This document shows, piece by piece, positions 1 to 7,311 of a stretch of DNA of 32,000 nucleotides (within the stretch, counting starts at the first letter, position 1; every line of letters starts with the position of its first letter). A program made the translations under genes and the position numbers. The notes under the pieces are model-generated. The model was not told the origin of the DNA, made no database searches, and worked only from the letters and a program-made list of their open reading frames with translations. The DNA is taken from positions 1 to 32,000 of the forward strand of contig PRDJ01000057.1 in NCBI GenBank assembly GCA_003345555.1, in the 5' to 3' direction. This DNA is from Candidatus Thorarchaeota archaeon. GTDB taxonomy: Archaea; Asgardarchaeota; Thorarchaeia; Thorarchaeales; Thorarchaeaceae.

Positions 1-1572
1 ACAATGGCTCCCTGCAGCGGTCGTCACGTTGTATGTGCACGATCTCCACTAACAGGGTTCTGGGGCGAATCAAACTCAGGTGGCCACTTTGGGGCGAACC
101 TTAGATTTTCAGGTTACGACGGGATACTCATCAAGGGGCGAGCCAAAAAACCCACTATCCTCTTCATCGATGACGGATCTCCAACTCTGGTTCCCGGGGA
201 GCACCTTTGGGGTATGACTACTGACACTGCTCAAGAGAGAATCAAGAAAGACCTTGGAAGAGTGCAGGTGGCCTGCATTGGTCCTGCAGGAGAGAACAAG
301 GTCAGGTTTGCAAGCATTATGAACGACGAGAGGTCGGCAGCAAGATGCGGCCTCGGAGCAGTCATGGGTTCAAAGCTACTCAAGGCGATTGCAGTTCGAG
401 GCAGAAATGAGGTTCCGCTGGCAGACCCTAGTGGTTTCAAGGCTTTAGCTCAGAAATCCTCTCAGACTCTGGGTGAACTCATGGCGCCACTCAGAGACTC
501 AGGCACCGCAGTCTACGTGGACATAGGCATGGAATTCAATGATATGCCCATCAAGTACTTTCAAGAAACCTCCTTCGACATCTCATCTCTCAATGCCAAG
601 GCCATGGCATCAATCTTGACGGGCAGGATTGCTTGTCACTCGTGTCCCATTGGTTGCGGTCGCAAGGTTTCGATTCCCGAGATGGGTCTCGAAGACATCG
701 CCGGGCCCGAGTATCAGACAATTGCGGCTTTCGGAACCAATGTCATGAATACCGACATCAGACAAGTAGCCAGAATGAATAGGCTCTGCAATCAGCTTGG
801 CATGGATACAATATCTTGCGGCAGTACCTTAGCACTGTCAATGTACCTGCGTGAGACCGGTGTTTTGGACATAGACTTGGATTGGGGCGACAGTGACAAG
901 ATGGCTGACATGATCTACGCCATCGCCCTACGCCAGGGACAAGGGAATCTGCTGGCAGAAGGGTCCAAGCGTCTTGGCGATTCTCTAGGTGCCAGCGACC
1001 AAGTCCTTCATGTAAAGGGGCTGGAGGTTCCGAATCATGACCCTCGCGCATTCTCCGGGATGGCGACAATCTATGCTGTAGCAGCTCGTGGCGCCACGCA
1101 CCTAGAGGGCGATATGTACAGCGTGGACATGGGCGCTGATGTGAGAGAGCTGGGAATAAACAGCGGAGACAGGCTCGACAATGAGGGCAAGGGTGCGATA
1201 GCCGCAAGGGCTCAAGACTACAGAGCATTCTTCGATTCACTAGTGATCTGCCACTTTGCGATACTTCCACTCCAAACGATTGTCGACCTGGTTCGCATGG
1301 CCACAGGGAGCACTCTGACCATCAATGACATGTTGACCCTTGGTGCTCGCAGTGTGGCTATCAAGCGGTTGTTCAATCTGAAGTGCGGTTTGAAGCCCGC
1401 GGATGATATACTGCCGGCAAGGCTACTGAAACCTCTCCCTGACAGTGCAACTGACGACTTTGTACCAGATATTCAGATGCAGCTAAAAGACTACTATGCC
1501 TATCGAAGGTGGGACAGAAAGACGGGCAGACCAAGCAGTGAAGCCTTCAAGGAGCTTGGGCTGGTACCCTAA
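1..1572 (+). CDS. aor: Aldehyde:ferredoxin oxidoreductase (tungsten AOR family), 5'-truncated by the window edge
   Basis: Frame is open from base 1. Motifs: SPLTG..GESNSGG, IGPAGEN.V.FA, GLGAVMGSKLLKAI, [4Fe-4S] ligands CHSCPIGC plus a distal C (LVICHF), GPEYQT and LGMDTIS pterin/metal motifs. Confidence 0.95.
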   Translation, partial: TMAPCSGRHVVCARSPLTGFWGESNSGGHFGANLRFSGYDGILIKGRAKKPTILFIDDGSPTLVPGEHLWGMTTDTAQERIKKDLGRVQVACIGPAGENKVRFASIMNDERSAARCGLGAVMGSKLLKAIAVRGRNEVPLADPSGFKALAQKSSQTLGELMAPLRDSGTAVYVDIGMEFNDMPIKYFQETSFDISSLNAKAMASILTGRIACHSCPIGCGRKVSIPEMGLEDIAGPEYQTIAAFGTNVMNTDIRQVARMNRLCNQLGMDTISCGSTLALSMYLRETGVLDIDLDWGDSDKMADMIYAIALRQGQGNLLAEGSKRLGDSLGASDQVLHVKGLEVPNHDPRAFSGMATIYAVAARGATHLEGDMYSVDMGADVRELGINSGDRLDNEGKGAIAARAQDYRAFFDSLVICHFAILPLQTIVDLVRMATGSTLTINDMLTLGARSVAIKRLFNLKCGLKPADDILPARLLKPLPDSATDDFVPDIQMQLKDYYAYRRWDRKTGRPSSEAFKELGLVP

Positions 1573-1916
1573 GCTTTCATCAGACGCTGAAGCTTCATGA
1601 GATCTCTCACTGGGCCCTTTGTCTTGATTCGGCCTCCCATAGCCGCACGTGTGGCCGACACCGTGCCATTCAGGATTCCAAGTATGGTCTCACTGTCCGT
1701 GGTAACTATCAAGTCGGGGTTCTCTGTGGACCCTTCCATCACCGATGCCTGTCCGTTCTGGAAAACCATCGACACATTGAGTCCTATGTCCTCGAAGCTC
1801 ATTAGAAGGGTTTTATCAAAGCCTTCGAAGTGCTTGCGTGTCTTTGGATCTTCAGTCTTACTGGCCATCTTGTGCATTGCCTGCAGAACCTCTTCCTTCG
1901 TCGCCACCTCGATCAC
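1569..1916 (-). CDS. Stand-alone SCP2 (sterol-carrier-protein-2 / lipid-binding) domain protein
   Basis: About 112-115 aa with the SCP2 pattern PDLIVTTDSETILGILNG..SATRAAMGGRIKTKG..RDLMKL. The start may be the GTG at 1907, because GGATGTGAT upstream looks like an RBS. Confidence 0.85.
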   Translation of the reverse strand: MIEVATKEEVLQAMHKMASKTEDPKTRKHFEGFDKTLLMSFEDIGLNVSMVFQNGQASVMEGSTENPDLIVTTDSETILGILNGTVSATRAAMGGRIKTKGPVRDLMKLQRLMKA

Positions 1917-2098
1917 ATCCCTAATTCGCGAATCTTCGATTTTTGAGTTCGCTCGATTCTATTCAGAATGAGGCCTATACAAAAGGTTGCCGAGGGCCAT
2001 ATCGTTCTTATGAGATGGCAACCAAGGCTGCGCAACAGCATGTCCGTATCCGACACCTTATTTCATGACTCTGGCCGCCTTCGGACCGGCGTGACACC

Positions 2099-3025
2099 GT
2101 GCAAATCATCCAAGACCTTTTGTTCAGGTTTGGCTTGTTCTATTTCCTAATCTTGGCAGGATACCTGCTGAGCAGGGTGTCACAGAAAGTCTTCACATTC
2201 GGCAAGCTTCTCAACTCTCTTCTCATCAATCTCCTTCTGCCCCTCCTAGTACTCTACACACTCCTGAATGTCTCTGGTCAGATTCTTGCTGAATTCTTTG
2301 CGATAATTGGGTTAGCAGTACTTGCTCACTTGCTTGGCGCAGGGATAATGCTCCTAAGACTCAGGAAGTCGAAACTCGAACGCAGGGCACAAGGTGCTCT
2401 GCTGCTTTCTGCTGCATATATTAACAGCATTTTCTTGCCCATTCCTCTGGTTCTGATTCTCATTGGACCCGAGGGTATTCCGATTGTGGCGCTGTTCTCT
2501 GTCGTCCAGGTTACACTGCTGGCCCTTATCGGTCCCGTAATAGGTTCTGCATACGGCGGCAAGAAGTCCAGCTGGAGATCCGCCGCCCGCTCGGTTCTCT
2601 TGTTTCCACCCCTGTTGGCTGTGTTTCTTGCAGTTGTACTCATGACCTTCGGCATAGTGCTACCCACCGTACTGGCATCAGGTCTCTCTCTGAGTGGCAC
2701 ACTGACCACTTATCTGGCACTGCTTGAAGTGGGTATCAGTGTCGGCCATCGTTTCTCCTTGGTGGATGCACGCACTGCATTGGATGCGATACTTGTTCGC
2801 CAGCTTATCGTACCTGCAATCATTGTCGCGGTCTTGTTATTCATTGGTTTGTCGGAGATCACGACGAAGGTTCTCATCCTAGAGGCCATGATGCCTTCGG
2901 CGGTAACGACAGTCGTCTACGCGGCAGGTCTGAACCTAGATTCCGAGCTGACGGCGACAGTTGTTACTGTTGGCACGCTCTTGCTTCTCCCGGTGATTCC
3001 GTTCTTGTGGTTGATAATCGGCTAG
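2099..3025 (+). CDS. AEC family (auxin efflux carrier / PIN-like, malonate permease-like) transporter
   Basis: 308 aa with about 10 hydrophobic segments in two repeats; crossover motifs N..FLPIP and EAMMPSA; C-terminal ATVVTVGTLL. Confidence 0.85.
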   Translation: MQIIQDLLFRFGLFYFLILAGYLLSRVSQKVFTFGKLLNSLLINLLLPLLVLYTLLNVSGQILAEFFAIIGLAVLAHLLGAGIMLLRLRKSKLERRAQGALLLSAAYINSIFLPIPLVLILIGPEGIPIVALFSVVQVTLLALIGPVIGSAYGGKKSSWRSAARSVLLFPPLLAVFLAVVLMTFGIVLPTVLASGLSLSGTLTTYLALLEVGISVGHRFSLVDARTALDAILVRQLIVPAIIVAVLLFIGLSEITTKVLILEAMMPSAVTTVVYAAGLNLDSELTATVVTVGTLLLLPVIPFLWLIIG

Positions 3026-3121
3026 CTGCATTCAGAGACCGCACTTGCCATCGAGGACAGACAACTCCATCCGAATGCATATATCATCCGATTCTCAAGC
3101 CAGTCATTGGCAGTGAGTTGT

Positions 3122-3445
3122 ATGAGCCGACACGTTTCTGAAAAGGAGCGAGACCCCGGCAAGATCAAGAAATCGCTCGACGATGCAGTGCACAAGTTGG
3201 ACCAAGAGTCCAGTTCAAGCGAAAGCTGGGGCGAGAAGCTGTCTGAGAATCGGGAAGAGTGGGAGGACCTCAAGAAGAAGATCAAGGAACGACAGAGGGC
3301 GCTAAAGGCTCTGGTGCGCGAAAAGAGGGCTGGCACGATTGGGGCAGAGGAATTCGAAAGGAAATACAAAGTGCTACAAGACGAACTCACAGAACTTGAG
3401 TTCGAAGTATACAACATGCGGCTAGGAACAGATCTGCATGTATGA
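3122..3445 (+). CDS. Hypothetical charged coiled-coil protein with a SHOCT-like GTIGAEEF segment
   Basis: 107 aa from ATG 3122 (in frame with the track ORF at 3107); E/K-rich helical composition; TATA-like CATATATC upstream. Confidence 0.7.
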   Translation: MSRHVSEKERDPGKIKKSLDDAVHKLDQESSSSESWGEKLSENREEWEDLKKKIKERQRALKALVREKRAGTIGAEEFERKYKVLQDELTELEFEVYNMRLGTDLHV

Positions 3446-3476
3446 TGGATGAATCCCCTTTTCTCATGGCTGTCAA

Positions 3477-4547
3477 CTACTCATGCTTCGCGCGCTGAAT
3501 AAGAACGGCGGTCTCAATTATCGCAACGACGGACAGTAGACCGGACATCATGATTAGAACGAGATTTGTTACACCGCTTGAGTTGGAGGCTGCTCCATGC
3601 TCAAGGGCGGACACCAATACGCCGAGGTTGTAAGACATCATTGCCACATAGTCTGCGAACCCCGAGAATGACACGGTATTCCACCAAATCAGTGTCCCTC
3701 CGTAGTCTTGGACCAACTGGTAAGCGAACTCCCCACCAGTCTCGAGTCGGGAGACGTCAGAACCCAGAATCAATTGGATAGTGCCGTTTCTGAGTGCGTC
3801 TTGGACCGTTAGAAGTTCACCGGGGGAGATGAATACGTTCTCAACCTGTAGGACCGCATCACAAATGATTCCGAATGTCTCCGCCACATAGGCCTCCTCT
3901 GCAGCGACCACTATTGCCCGCATGCTTGAGAAATGATATTGTGAGTTTCGAACGGCCACTAGGTCTTCGAATCCCTGTACGTCACCAACGAATCCTCTGA
4001 AGTTAGCGTTCCAGATACTGGACATCGTGAAATTGAGCATGCCAAGGGCTGCGCGTGTGGCATTCGCTATAGCAATAGCATTACGCGGTAACAACCAATA
4101 TCCGTGAGGGTTCGCATTCTGTTCCTCTTGGGACGTCTGGTTGCCTTCTCCCGTTCCCGGCATGGCCGACAATGTTGCTCCATAGTCTTCGTATCGTGCA
4201 ATCGCACTGCTGTCCTCTAGGCTTACGAATGGTTTGCCGGTTTGATTAATCAAGTCCGTTTCCCATGGGAAGTGGCCTGTAAGAACGAGCAGGTCCGCCG
4301 CATTTGCAGCATTGACAACATCCTGCGGCAACTGAGATGCATGGGGATCCAATCCTTCAGGGAACAAGGTGGATGCATTCACGTAATCTCCCCCAACCTG
4401 CTGCGCAATCCCTGCAAGGGGGGCAATGGATCCAGCAACTCTCAGAACGTTAGAGCTGCGATTTGAGGGTGAAGCAGGTGCTGCCAGTGGATAGAGTGTC
4501 AGAAGTATCGCTGACACAACAGCAATCACAGCTCTCTTTCTGGCCAC
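3477..4547 (-). CDS. Metal ABC transporter substrate-binding protein (ZnuA/TroA, cluster A-I) with C-terminal membrane anchor
   Basis: Signal peptide; GLDPH and NPH.YWL metal motifs; many N-x-S/T sequons; C-terminal TM helix; RBS AGGAGGAG upstream of the GTG. Confidence 0.85.
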   Translation of the reverse strand: MARKRAVIAVVSAILLTLYPLAAPASPSNRSSNVLRVAGSIAPLAGIAQQVGGDYVNASTLFPEGLDPHASQLPQDVVNAANAADLLVLTGHFPWETDLINQTGKPFVSLEDSSAIARYEDYGATLSAMPGTGEGNQTSQEEQNANPHGYWLLPRNAIAIANATRAALGMLNFTMSSIWNANFRGFVGDVQGFEDLVAVRNSQYHFSSMRAIVVAAEEAYVAETFGIICDAVLQVENVFISPGELLTVQDALRNGTIQLILGSDVSRLETGGEFAYQLVQDYGGTLIWWNTVSFSGFADYVAMMSYNLGVLVSALEHGAASNSSGVTNLVLIMMSGLLSVVAIIETAVLIQRAKHE

Positions 4548-4569
4548 TGGTCTCTACTCCTCCTGTGTG

Positions 4570-4597
4570 ATATTAACATTTCATGGAATGCTAATAT
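4570..4597. promoter_or_regulatory. Putative NikR operator: 28-bp palindrome ATATTA-N16-TAATAT
   Basis: ATATTAACATTTCA|TGGAATGCTAATAT has 12 of 14 arm positions complementary. It lies between the divergent SBP and nikR genes and has the same 6-16-6 geometry as the E. coli NikR site. Confidence 0.7.
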
Positions 4598-4679
4598 TCT
4601 TAAGGGTTCCGACAGAAGGCAAGATGCATCCTCGTGTTGCATCGAGGCAGACTCGTCAACCGTAGTGCGGGCGACCAAG

Positions 4680-5075
4680 ATGGCAATAGTAGCAGTCTCA
4701 ATGCCTGATTCTGATTTGAACGAACTTGAGAAGATGCAGACCGATGGAGGTTTTTCCAGCAGGTCCGAAGTGGTCCGACACGCACTGCAGTCACTTATCG
4801 CCGAACAGAGGACGCTGGAATTGGCTTCAGGTGACATCACGGCAGTCTTCACGGTCATATACTCGGAAAGAGGAAAGAACGACCAGTGTGACCAAGTGCA
4901 GCACGACTACAGCCGAATGGTAGCTGCGGTCATGCATGCTCATGCGACCGATGGCGGTTGTGTTGAAGTGATGCTGGTCAAGGGAGCGGCGAGCGGCGTG
5001 AGGGAATTCCTGAATAGGCTCAGGACCCAAAGGCAGGTGATTCGCGTTCAGGTCAGTCTTGTGGGAGCACAATGA
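4680..5075 (+). CDS. nikR: NikR-family ribbon-helix-helix metal-responsive regulator
   Basis: N-terminal RHH (IVAVSMP..SSRSEVVRHAL) and ACT-like domain with H-x10-H-x-H-x5-C (QHDYSRMVAAVMHAHATDGGCVE), the exact spacing of E. coli NikR H76/H87/H89/C95. ATG at 4680. Confidence 0.9.
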   Translation: MAIVAVSMPDSDLNELEKMQTDGGFSSRSEVVRHALQSLIAEQRTLELASGDITAVFTVIYSERGKNDQCDQVQHDYSRMVAAVMHAHATDGGCVEVMLVKGAASGVREFLNRLRTQRQVIRVQVSLVGAQ

Positions 5076-5076
5076 T

Positions 5077-5880
5077 ATGGAACCCCGGTATCTATTCGAT
5101 GCTGCAGACCTGATGGTCAGGTATCCGAACGGCGAGGTAGCATTGCATGATGTCACGTTCAAAGTGAAAGCTCCATCATTTACTGCTATCATTGGGCCGA
5201 ATGGATCGGGGAAGAGCACCCTCCTCAAGACAGCACTGGGCATGATGAAGCCCATGAAGGGTTACATAAGAGTTCTCGGCTATGACTCTCAACGTGATAA
5301 GGCCAAGATACGAAGACTCGTACGATATGTGCCCCAGCGAGATCGGATTGGTCTCACTGTGCCTATGAAAGTGAAGGATATCGTGCTCATGGGCCGACTG
5401 TTGAAGAAGCTACCTCCAAGGCTTGCCTCCAGTCATGACGTCGAGGTCGCGAAGACTGCACTTGAACAGGTTGACATGCTTGACATGTGGAACCATCCTT
5501 TTCCTGAATTGTCTGGTGGTCAACGCCAAAGGGTTCTGGTTGCGAGAGCATTGGCTGGAGAGGGAGAGATACTCATGCTTGATGAACCTCTTACAGGCAC
5601 CGATATAGAGAGTCAGGATCTAATTGTGAAAGCTCTGAGCGAGTATCATGAGAATAATGAAGTCAGCATTGTAATCGTCACGCACGACCTGAATCCGGTC
5701 CATACGATGGTCGAGAATGTTCTTCTTCTCAAGGGAACCGTCGAAGGAATCGGCGAGCCATGTAGTATCATGGACCCAGAGATTGTTGCTCGCGTCTACG
5801 GACCAACGGCGAGGATAGTAGAGTATGGTGGGCACAAGTACTGTGTTATGAAGGATCTGGGATTTGATCGTCATGATTGA
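5077..5880 (+). CDS. Metal ABC transporter ATP-binding protein (ZnuC/MntA family)
   Basis: Walker A GPNGSGKST, YVPQ Q-loop, LSGGQRQR signature, LMLDEP, VTHD. ATG 5077 directly follows the nikR stop. Confidence 0.93.
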   Translation: MEPRYLFDAADLMVRYPNGEVALHDVTFKVKAPSFTAIIGPNGSGKSTLLKTALGMMKPMKGYIRVLGYDSQRDKAKIRRLVRYVPQRDRIGLTVPMKVKDIVLMGRLLKKLPPRLASSHDVEVAKTALEQVDMLDMWNHPFPELSGGQRQRVLVARALAGEGEILMLDEPLTGTDIESQDLIVKALSEYHENNEVSIVIVTHDLNPVHTMVENVLLLKGTVEGIGEPCSIMDPEIVARVYGPTARIVEYGGHKYCVMKDLGFDRHD

Positions 5881-6811
5881 TATCATTCAACTCATCTTAA
5901 CGACGCCGTTTCTGCAGCGCGCGCTCGTTGGTGCAATACTAATCGCCATCGTGTCCTCGACTAGCGGCACATTTCTTGTGTTCCGAGGGCTCTCGTTCAT
6001 GACCTCAGGTGTTGCTCATGCAGCTCTAGGCGGTGCAGCTCTGGGTTTGTTCCTGCAGTACACAGGAATAGCCCCTTGGTTCGACCCGATACTTGGAGCG
6101 CTTGTCTTTAGCGTCTTTGTGGCCTTGGTAACGGGCTACGCTGGCGAATCTGGAATAACGGAGAAAATGGAGGTTGCAGTCGGCGTATCCTTCGCATTAT
6201 CAATGAGCATTGCCGTGTTCCTGATGTACTATATTCCGCCAACTCAGGTTCCGCAAATTTGGGGCTATCTCATAGGCGATATCTTACTGCTGAACACCTT
6301 CGACATTATCATGTTAGCAGGAACCGCCTTGCTTCTTCTGCTGATCACGATGATGTTCAACAAGGAGTTCGTCTATGTCAGCGTTGACATGGAGGGCTCT
6401 CTTGCACATGGACTGAATGCACGCTTGTATCACTACTTGATGCTCATAACTTCAGCCCTCGCCATTGCTCTTGCTACCAAAGCTGTTGGGGCCATTCTTG
6501 TATATGCCATAATGGTTGCACCTGCCGCGGCGTCAAACGAGGTTGTCCATTCTGTGAGGGGTGTTGTGGTGGGAGTATTCTGCATAGCTGTGCTGTCAGA
6601 AGTGGTTGGACTCGTTGTGTCATTCGCAGTCAGGGCATCGCCGAGCGCGATTGCGGGAATCATCGCGGCATTGTCATATGTCATAGCGATGCAGATCAAG
6701 AGGATTCGAGAGCGGGTGAAGCAAGTTGGAGTCCCATCCAGGTCTCAGGACTTGAAGAAGACGATATCCCCGCCGACTCCAGACGGGCCTGATGCCAATC
6801 ATGCGCATTGA
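5873..6811 (+). CDS. Metal ABC transporter permease (ZnuB/MntB, ABC-3 family)
   Basis: FLQRAL, G.FLVFRGLSF...GVAHAALGG, YLIGDIL, KAVGAILV..IMVAPAAA. Overlaps the ATPase stop (ATGATTGA). Confidence 0.93.
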   Translation: MIDIIQLILTTPFLQRALVGAILIAIVSSTSGTFLVFRGLSFMTSGVAHAALGGAALGLFLQYTGIAPWFDPILGALVFSVFVALVTGYAGESGITEKMEVAVGVSFALSMSIAVFLMYYIPPTQVPQIWGYLIGDILLLNTFDIIMLAGTALLLLLITMMFNKEFVYVSVDMEGSLAHGLNARLYHYLMLITSALAIALATKAVGAILVYAIMVAPAAASNEVVHSVRGVVVGVFCIAVLSEVVGLVVSFAVRASPSAIAGIIAALSYVIAMQIKRIRERVKQVGVPSRSQDLKKTISPPTPDGPDANHAH

Positions 6812-6906: not shown

Positions 6907-7311
6907 GTGAGAACGGCTGTGAGCGATGAGGTTCCAGAGCGCCGCGAGGTTGTACGATCCACAGTGGTATCGGTGATTCTTGCTGTAGTCTTCCTTATTC
7001 TCGCTATCGCACTCTGGGCGTGGTCAGCTCCTGGACTGGTAAGCCCGGTTTCTTACCTGAATTCCATCAATCCATACATATCCGTGGTCCTTGAGATTCT
7101 TGCGATGTTTGGGTTCTTTGTCTTCATCACAGTAACCGTAGTGAATCTCAGGCTTGGTCTTACTGAGATAAGAGCAGGATGGACCGAGGTTGTCACGACG
7201 ATTGTCTTGGTCACGATAGTGTCGTGGGCCATGTTTGGTGCTAGCATAAGCGGAGCTAGCTTGATTCTTTCCTTGGCCTTCGTTGTCTACCTGTACTTGC
7301 TGCAAGACTGA
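6907..7311 (+). CDS. Hypothetical membrane protein (about 4 TM)
   Basis: 134 aa with four long hydrophobic segments; TATA-like TTTAAGTA about 35 nt upstream. Confidence 0.75.
   Translation: MRTAVSDEVPERREVVRSTVVSVILAVVFLILAIALWAWSAPGLVSPVSYLNSINPYISVVLEILAMFGFFVFITVTVVNLRLGLTEIRAGWTEVVTTIVLVTIVSWAMFGASISGASLILSLAFVVYLYLLQD

Follow-up and report, generated by a model that had tools for sequence, protein, structure and literature searches.

The subject of this study is a metal importer locus in the first 32,000 nucleotides of contig PRDJ01000057.1 of a Candidatus Thorarchaeota archaeon (assembly GCA_003345555.1). We call this whole stretch the window. The genome, in which it is contig C57, has a size of 2.28 Mb and a completeness of 93%. 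The locus combines an importer of the ATP-binding cassette (ABC) type, a regulator of the NikR family encoded next to it and a 28-bp palindrome between the divergent genes (Table 1). We suggest that these parts form a self-contained, autoregulated metal-uptake module, repressed by a NikR paralog of a kind that we call class 2, and that its cognate metal is most likely zinc. Our confidence in this reading as a whole, in which we infer DNA binding, repression and the identity of the metal, is evenly balanced. It starts from plain observations on the genomes, namely the gene families and their order, the conservation of the metal ligands, the split of NikR proteins into two classes and the co-occurrence of regulator and operator.

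In the mechanism that we propose, the class-2 NikR would be a tetrameric ribbon-helix-helix (RHH) repressor, as its homology suggests, and its metal-loaded form would bind the 28-bp operator between the two divergent promoters, overlapping their AT-rich TATA regions. Binding would shut off the binding-protein gene and the nikR-ATPase-permease operon alike. Upon metal shortage the repressor would leave the DNA and the importer would be made. The metal would most likely be zinc, and the regulator would take the role of Zur, which we did not find in this genome. Since nikR is the first gene of its operon, it is probably autoregulated.

The regulator, its operon and its candidate operator

The window regulator has the two domains of a NikR. 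Its RHH domain scores 21.8 bits against PF01402 (cut-off 20.5), its ACT-like metal-binding domain NikR_C scores 54.8 bits against PF08753 (cut-off 22), and the protein aligns from residue 4 onwards with the NikR proteins of E. coli, P. horikoshii and H. pylori. In the alignment, His75, His86, His88 and Cys94 correspond to His76, His87, His89 and Cys95 of E. coli NikR (1q5v), with the spacing H-x10-H-x-H-x5-C in both, which bears out the claim of an earlier note on this DNA that the four high-affinity nickel ligands are conserved with exact spacing. From its sequence, we place the protein in the NikR family by domain content and ligands, but do not file it as a nickel-responsive NikR, because it fails the equivalog cut-offs, lacks Arg3 and Asp34, has another operator and has no link to a nickel system. 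The NCBIfam scores are 53.0 against a cut-off of 175.45 (TIGR02793), 66.6 against 83 (NF002815) and 57.4 against 105 (NF003381), and the best subfamily model gives 83.1 against 111. The partners of the gene are a ZnuA, an ABC ATPase and an ABC-3 permease, and we saw no link to NikABCDE, Nik/CbiMNQO or NiCoT systems or to nickel enzymes.

The comparison with E. coli NikR and its nikABCDE target (PDB 1q5v, 2hzv) is one of shared architecture and different detail. Both proteins join an RHH domain to NikR_C, both have the four ligand equivalents, and in both cases the regulator gene adjoins the importer that it represses or would repress. The window protein is, however, only about 25-30% identical to its E. 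coli counterpart and stays under every NCBIfam NikR cut-off. Its partner is a cluster A-I (ZnuABC-type) importer and not the peptide/nickel-type NikABCDE, and its cognate metal is probably not nickel. Position 3 is Ile instead of Arg and the position of Asp34 is His, while Glu30 is kept. We take Arg3 to lie in the DNA-reading strand of E. coli NikR, and Glu30 and Asp34 in its second (K+) site.

The nikR gene opens the nikR-ATPase-permease operon, from which the binding-protein gene is divergent. Counted from ATG starts, the nikR stop (5075) and the ATPase start (5077) leave a gap of 1 nt, and the ATPase and permease genes overlap by 8 nt (5873-5880). These are the figures from which the earlier note had described a tightly coupled unit with a divergent gene for the substrate-binding protein. 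A GTG at 4665 is an alternative start for nikR. With a ZnuA-fold binding protein, an ABC-3 permease and an ABC ATPase (PF01297, PF00950 and PF00005, together with the fold matches given below), the importer is of cluster A-I. The ATPase has MntA and AztA as its best NCBIfam neighbours, with every score under the cut-off.

The palindrome of Table 1 is a plausible operator for this regulator, and we see in it the window's version of a site, TTAWTAA-N14/15-TTAWTAA, that is found throughout the class-2 clade. We found no other inverted repeat in the 132-bp intergenic region. Its half-site centres are 21 bp apart, and its geometry is the same as that of the E. coli NikR operator, which we take to be GTATGA-N16-TCATAC with a 28-bp span; the window half-site is the AT-rich TTAWTAA where that of E. 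coli is presumably GTATGA. The palindrome is better formed in a relative whose NikR is 87% identical (13/14 pairs). Ten orthologous intergenic regions share the element TTAWTAA-N14-TTAWTAA, mostly as a pair of copies some 50 bp from each other, and in these regions the N14 spacing yields 21 matches with at most two mismatches, against 0-10 for every other spacing from 6 to 23.

Sites and regulator genes go together, and in the Asgard genomes that we sampled the operator motif accompanies class-2 nikR wherever this gene occurs. Perfect TTAWTAA-N14/15-TTAWTAA sites occur in the znu promoter regions of loci L045, L050, L051, L052 and L098 (families f1 and f14), L064 (f33) and L067/L068 (f29). All perfect-site znu loci carry an adjacent class-2 nikR, whatever the gene order (the L064 gene is known from its first 65 residues), and no perfect site was found in the promoter regions of modules without a class-2 nikR. 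Across 86 genomes of the window's family there are 51 perfect sites, against 24 for a reversed control pattern, and many coincide with the znu module. Within the window genome, TATTAA-N14-TTAATA occurs three times when one mismatch is allowed. Of the two further matches, each with one mismatch, one is close to a flavodoxin-like gene with an unknown open reading frame (ORF) of 143 aa and the other is inside a ThiS-like ORF, and the genome-wide scan gave no convincing second target.

About 26 nt separate the left arm of the window operator from the binding-protein start downstream of it, and several relatives have their outermost half-site 24-27 nt ahead of the start of nikR. These distances suggest that the candidate operator probably overlaps the TATA boxes for leaderless transcripts, and archaeal repressors usually work by such an overlap. 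We also considered that the palindrome might be merely two facing TATA boxes. TATA overlap is still likely, but we do not accept it as the whole explanation, since the palindrome extends to the inner bases, the spacing is constant at 14-15 and the presence of the site follows that of the regulator gene.

Genus g11 (L085-L102) has perfect N14 sites before other genes as well, conserved across species (e.g. L086:3507-3534, L090:3503-3530 and L092:3486-3513). One precedes a pyridine-nucleotide disulfide oxidoreductase gene, with a divergent gene for a NosD-like beta-helix protein, another precedes two tandem OsmC-like genes, and a third precedes the gene of an unknown protein (about 780 aa) that neighbours an F420 ligase. 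In g11, either redox defence belongs to the class-2 NikR regulon or the site is shared with another factor.

Two classes of NikR and the spread of the module

Asgard NikR proteins fall into two classes, as seen in a comparison of 50 sequences. Class 1 carries Arg3 in its DNA-reading strand and mostly also an RSEAIRD motif, as E. coli NikR does, and its genes often adjoin CbiM (in 9 of the 30 best matches to the Pfam model). Class 2, which includes the window NikR, starts with MPIVSxSL, with Ile3, and has His, Gln, Arg, Ala or Asn in place of Asp34. In a maximum-likelihood tree of 48 of the sequences, 15 class-2 proteins from families f1, f14 and f29 lie on one side of a branch with support 97/91 and the canonical Arg3 proteins on the other. 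In the sampled Asgard genomes, each of the 15 genes belongs to a Znu-type module or adjoins one.

Most members of class 2 keep the nickel ligands. The class-2 proteins of f29 have Gln or Lys for His88. In a fully syntenic ortholog of the window NikR (L007/L008, 4501-4905; GCA_008080745.1), three of the four ligands are replaced (Asp for His75, Lys for His88 and Ser for Cys94), and the operator there is degenerate in its right half. Within the class-2 clade, the nickel ligands appear from these sequences to be dispensable, because the f29 proteins and the syntenic ortholog have kept their position in the module in spite of such replacements.

The arrangement itself, with the znuA-type gene on one strand and nikR, the ATPase and the ABC-3 permease on the other, was found again in relatives whose NikR is 87%, 55%, 40% and 35% identical. 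The first three also share the flanks, with an aldehyde ferredoxin oxidoreductase, an AEC-type transporter and a small ORF on one side, and a small ORF, the proteasome alpha subunit, SBDS and exosome genes on the other. The fourth, which is metagenomic, has kept the module between different flanks. The recurrence of the module in relatives whose NikR is only 35% identical argues that the four-gene arrangement is not due to chance. The gene call of the 87%-identical relative splits the ATPase gene into two pieces, of 128 and 134 aa (L004 6413-7215, equal to L044 3697-4532), and the gene is whole in L005, a second assembly of the same sequence. The split is a frameshift either in the assembly or in the gene.

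We sampled 40 ABC-3 loci from across the Asgard phylum. They have nikR within the module in three genera of the window's own family and in family f14, and further loci add genus g11 of the window's family. The class-2 gene is tightly embedded in the importer operon in families f1 and f14, divergent from znuA-ATPase-permease in f29 and, in f33, downstream of the operon (a gene with a class-2-type N-terminus, known from its first 65 residues). A NikR gene is convergent with the module in f13. Among the 40 loci, those of three other genera of the window's family have a module without NikR, and no NikR was found in the sampled loci of eleven further families. Canonical Arg3 NikR genes also stand beside ABC-3 systems in other Asgard families (L030, L039, L077). 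By gene order and sequence, the NikR-Znu pairing is recurrent, with several separate origins or rearrangements, but not universal. The earlier note had called for a survey of this gene order across archaea; ours, which covered the Asgard phylum and metagenome contigs, shows it to be widespread in the Asgard genomes sampled.

Zinc, nickel or another signal

The metal carried by the importer is a question for its binding protein and for the rest of the genome. The binding protein has a signal-like N-terminal segment, and a membrane helix is predicted at its C-terminus (model residues 324-355), by which it seems to be anchored. Its AlphaFold model (pLDDT 87.5) has PsaA, YfeA, MntC, FpvC-Ni and AztC as top Foldseek matches (TM 0.75-0.81 on the targets), and FpvC is its best sequence match in the PDB. 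We searched a 36-sequence alignment for invariant residues, and assigned ligands from conservation and profile alignments. The likely metal residues are His69, His148, Glu218 and Asp264 (90%), to which may be added an extra invariant His92 within a TGHFPWE motif after strand 3; the alignment has no conserved Cys. The zinc-specific features of ZnuA, AdcA and AztC, which are a third His in H-x-x-[FWY]-x-Y and a loop rich in His that precedes the second His, are both absent: Ala215 occupies the canonical place of the third ligand, five residues ahead of Tyr220, and the loop has no His. Most orthologs have a His/Asp/Glu-rich loop before the second His ligand.

The protein shares with PsaA, MntC, YfeA, ZnuA, AztC and FpvC the fold and the first two His ligands (DPH, NPH), and departs from them elsewhere. 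Glu218 lies two residues before Tyr220 and not five, Asp264 comes directly after its strand, and the predicted anchor is a C-terminal membrane helix and not a lipid. The TGHFPWE motif is an additional invariant of the family of this binding protein, FpvC of P. aeruginosa having Gly-His at this position too. The nearest nikR-less relatives of the binding protein (L053-L059; f2, f3, f6 and f26) lack Glu218, His92 and Asp264, but conserve a Cys at two residues' distance ahead of the Asp264 position (ICPE, ACAE, VCES); their sequences point to a further metal-site variant in the same cluster A-I branch.

The window genome has other metal systems. A second NikR_C gene, with a higher Pfam score than the window NikR, lies on contig C77 (locus L006, 7266-10029) and encodes a canonical NikR (Arg3, RSEAVRD, intact His3Cys, Asp34). 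It is divergent from CbiM-CbiQ-CbiO, with three GTAACAC repeats in the same orientation, 13-15 nt apart, upstream of cbiM. On contig C61 (locus L084, 1389-4090), a DtxR-type repressor fused to FeoA, the only DtxR-type gene of the genome, lies directly upstream of FeoB on the same strand, and the two reading frames overlap. There is one NRAMP transporter, and there are at least three NiFe-hydrogenase large subunits. No member of the FUR family (Zur/Fur) and no ZIP transporter were found in this 93%-complete genome, and the window permease is the only ABC-3 gene found. By elimination, the module would be the zinc importer of the cell, because CbiMQO covers nickel and cobalt, FeoB iron and NRAMP manganese, no ZIP or Zur was found, and the ABC-3 system is the only one.

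Relatives provide further pointers to zinc in their sequences. The class-2 partners in f29 and f33 are canonical ZnuA proteins with the three-His feature (HHPSFKY and FHPAFNY, then PQ), related Ile3 NikR genes stand beside a ZIP transporter and a Zn/Cd-type ATPase, and most orthologs of the window binding protein have the His/Asp/Glu-rich loops already mentioned. The ZIP transporter is divergent from a more distant Ile3 relative (36% identical). The ATPase gene is divergent from the Ile3 NikR of L100 (G325:C63, genus g9; 1403-3951), which has intact ligands and a perfect operator just upstream of its start. This ATPase has 673 aa, a His/Cys-rich N-terminus and the motifs CPCx4SxP, Nx7K and DxG, presumably the Zn/Cd/Pb-type (P1B-2) signature of the Argüello classification. 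The znu module of genus g9 is without nikR, as seen in G328, and has a site with two mismatches (L046).

Several of our observations fit poorly with a zinc regulon. The window NikR retains all four square-planar nickel ligands at the spacing expected of a nickel sensor. The binding protein is non-canonical for zinc, having no His at the usual third-ligand position, and its loop lacks the histidines present in its orthologs. Its His, His, Glu and Asp candidates resemble the Mn/Fe-type set of PsaA, MntC and YfeA, albeit at shifted positions, and the crystallisation of FpvC, a cluster A-I protein, with Ni2+ makes nickel binding by this fold possible. The sites before redox genes in g11 are not predicted by a plain zinc regulon. 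The L100 NikR beside the P-type ATPase keeps Asp34 and is outside the class-2 clade, on a long branch. Finally, the elimination argument can reckon only with known transporter families and with a genome of 93% completeness. We nevertheless regard zinc as the more probable metal to be sensed when set against nickel, and give zinc itself roughly equal chances for and against.

The earlier note had titled the locus a candidate nickel/cobalt uptake regulon while allowing that its NikR might sense another metal such as zinc; our results favour the second option and weaken the title. If the title were right, the paralog would be a true Ni(II) sensor and the ZnuABC-type system a second high-affinity nickel/cobalt importer beside CbiMQO. 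The intact ligands with their exact spacing, the remodelled non-canonical site of the binding protein and a best PDB match solved with Ni2+ fit this well, as does the real nickel demand of a cell with several NiFe-hydrogenases, and some canonical Arg3 NikRs adjoin ABC-3 systems elsewhere in Asgard archaea. Yet the genome already has a canonical NikR-CbiMQO pair, class-2 proteins form a clade with another DNA-reading strand and another operator, and members of this clade lose nickel ligands while remaining in the module. The partners in other families are His3 ZnuA proteins, the neighbours of related Ile3 NikRs are ZIP and Zn/Cd-type proteins, and the sole ABC-3 system would be diverted to nickel, leaving the cell without a recognisable zinc importer. 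We consider a nickel/cobalt regulon unlikely. We also think it rather unlikely that the importer is a PsaA/MntC/YfeA-like system for Mn(II) or Fe(II), with a paralog that senses one of these metals, although the candidate ligands match the Mn/Fe-type set and the top fold matches include PsaA, YfeA and MntC. NRAMP and DtxR-controlled FeoB already cover both metals, the class-2 partners in f29 and f33 are of the zinc type, and His3Cys makes a poor Mn(II) site by general coordination chemistry. Moreover, Glu218 and Asp264, invariant or nearly so, are 2-3 residues off Glu205 and Asp280 of PsaA in profile alignments, which makes the ligand set uncertain. The g11 operators before the disulfide oxidoreductase and OsmC peroxiredoxin genes recall the link between manganese uptake and oxidative stress in bacteria.

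The same redox sites could also fit a signal other than a metal, such as thiol oxidation at Cys94 or pH, to which H. pylori NikR responds (PMC11672702), and the syntenic ortholog without three of its four ligands might even suggest that the module is no longer regulated by the paralog. Both ideas sit badly with the embedding of the regulator, at a gap of 1 nt, in a metal-importer operon in f1 and f14, with the co-occurrence of regulator and operator and with the conservation of the ligands in most members, and we hold them to be quite improbable. This leaves zinc uptake under a class-2 NikR as our preferred reading. Extended to the whole class, it would make class-2 NikR a zinc sensor and repressor of zinc uptake in archaea where no Zur was found, acting at TTAWTAA-N14/15-TTAWTAA operators, and the first NikR fold with a metal other than nickel. 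Its selectivity would then have been re-set by allostery on an unchanged site, because the window lineage would still use an intact His3Cys site with the full set of nickel ligands. We advance this wider claim tentatively, with slightly less than even confidence. If the metal were nickel after all, the locus would reveal a new substrate class for cluster A-I transporters.

The NikR-Znu pairing is not new as an observation. Kaster et al. (2011) noted in Methanothermobacter a NikR homolog (MTH603 / MTBMA_c09830) beside ZnuABC (MTH603-606) and suggested a response to zinc (PMC3087415). As in our locus, the gene adjoins a ZnuABC-type cluster in an archaeon with further NikR copies; theirs, however, was a remark in a genome annotation, which described no operator, clade or experiment. 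We found no experimental characterisation of the pairing in the literature. According to a 2024 review (PMC11672702), NikR proteins sense nickel only, which agrees with the statement of the earlier note that characterised NikRs control nickel systems. Little has been established on zinc sensing in archaea: Haas et al. (2009) recognised no Fur/Zur homolog in the archaeal genomes sequenced by then, and the only candidate is a DtxR-like ZntR predicted for znuABC of Methanosarcina (PMC2770081). The logic predicted for Zur and ZntR, a metal-loaded repressor of a ZnuABC-type importer, is the one that we propose here. Their folds are, however, unrelated to that of NikR; no FUR-family gene was found in the window genome and its sole DtxR-type gene is fused to FeoA and lies with FeoB.

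The locus makes the question of the metal directly testable, with a regulator of 131 residues, a defined 28-bp candidate operator and a single target module. The canonical NikR of the same genome, with GTAACAC sites and a CbiMQO target of its own, can serve as an internal control. The value of the window in particular is limited, the pairing having been noted in 2011 and being common in Asgard archaea; it is a good specimen but not a unique one.

Coordinates and flanking genes

Table 1. Positions of the importer, regulator and candidate operator in the window
Feature	Position	Strand	Remarks
Cluster A-I (ZnuA/PsaA-fold) substrate-binding protein	3477-4547	-	356 aa; PF01297 ZnuA, 77 bits
Candidate operator, 28-bp palindrome	4570-4597	between divergent genes	ATATTAA-N14-CTAATAT, 12/14 pairs
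Class-2 NikR paralog, RHH + NikR_C	4680-5075	+	131 aa counted from ATG
ABC ATPase (ZnuC/MntA/AztA-like)	5077-5880	+	ATG start; PF00005, 100 bits
ABC-3 permease (ZnuB/AztB-like)	5873-6811	+	ATG start; PF00950, 166 bits

Two small ORFs flank the module on the plus strand, one of 112 aa (3107-3445), charged and coiled-coil-like, and one of 134 aa (6907-7311), hydrophobic. Neither has a Pfam match. No FmdE match was found among the ORFs that flank the module, and for this reason and the lack of a conserved Cys in the binding protein we did not class the module with FmdE-containing nickel importers of the ZnuA type that have Cys/His ligands. Both small ORFs keep their positions in the syntenic Thorarchaeota loci; they are probably outside the module, because they are not kept in the more distant L009. 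The nearest named database proteins are from Candidatus Thorarchaeota. The C-terminal tail of the permease (6770-6811) ends in DANHAH.

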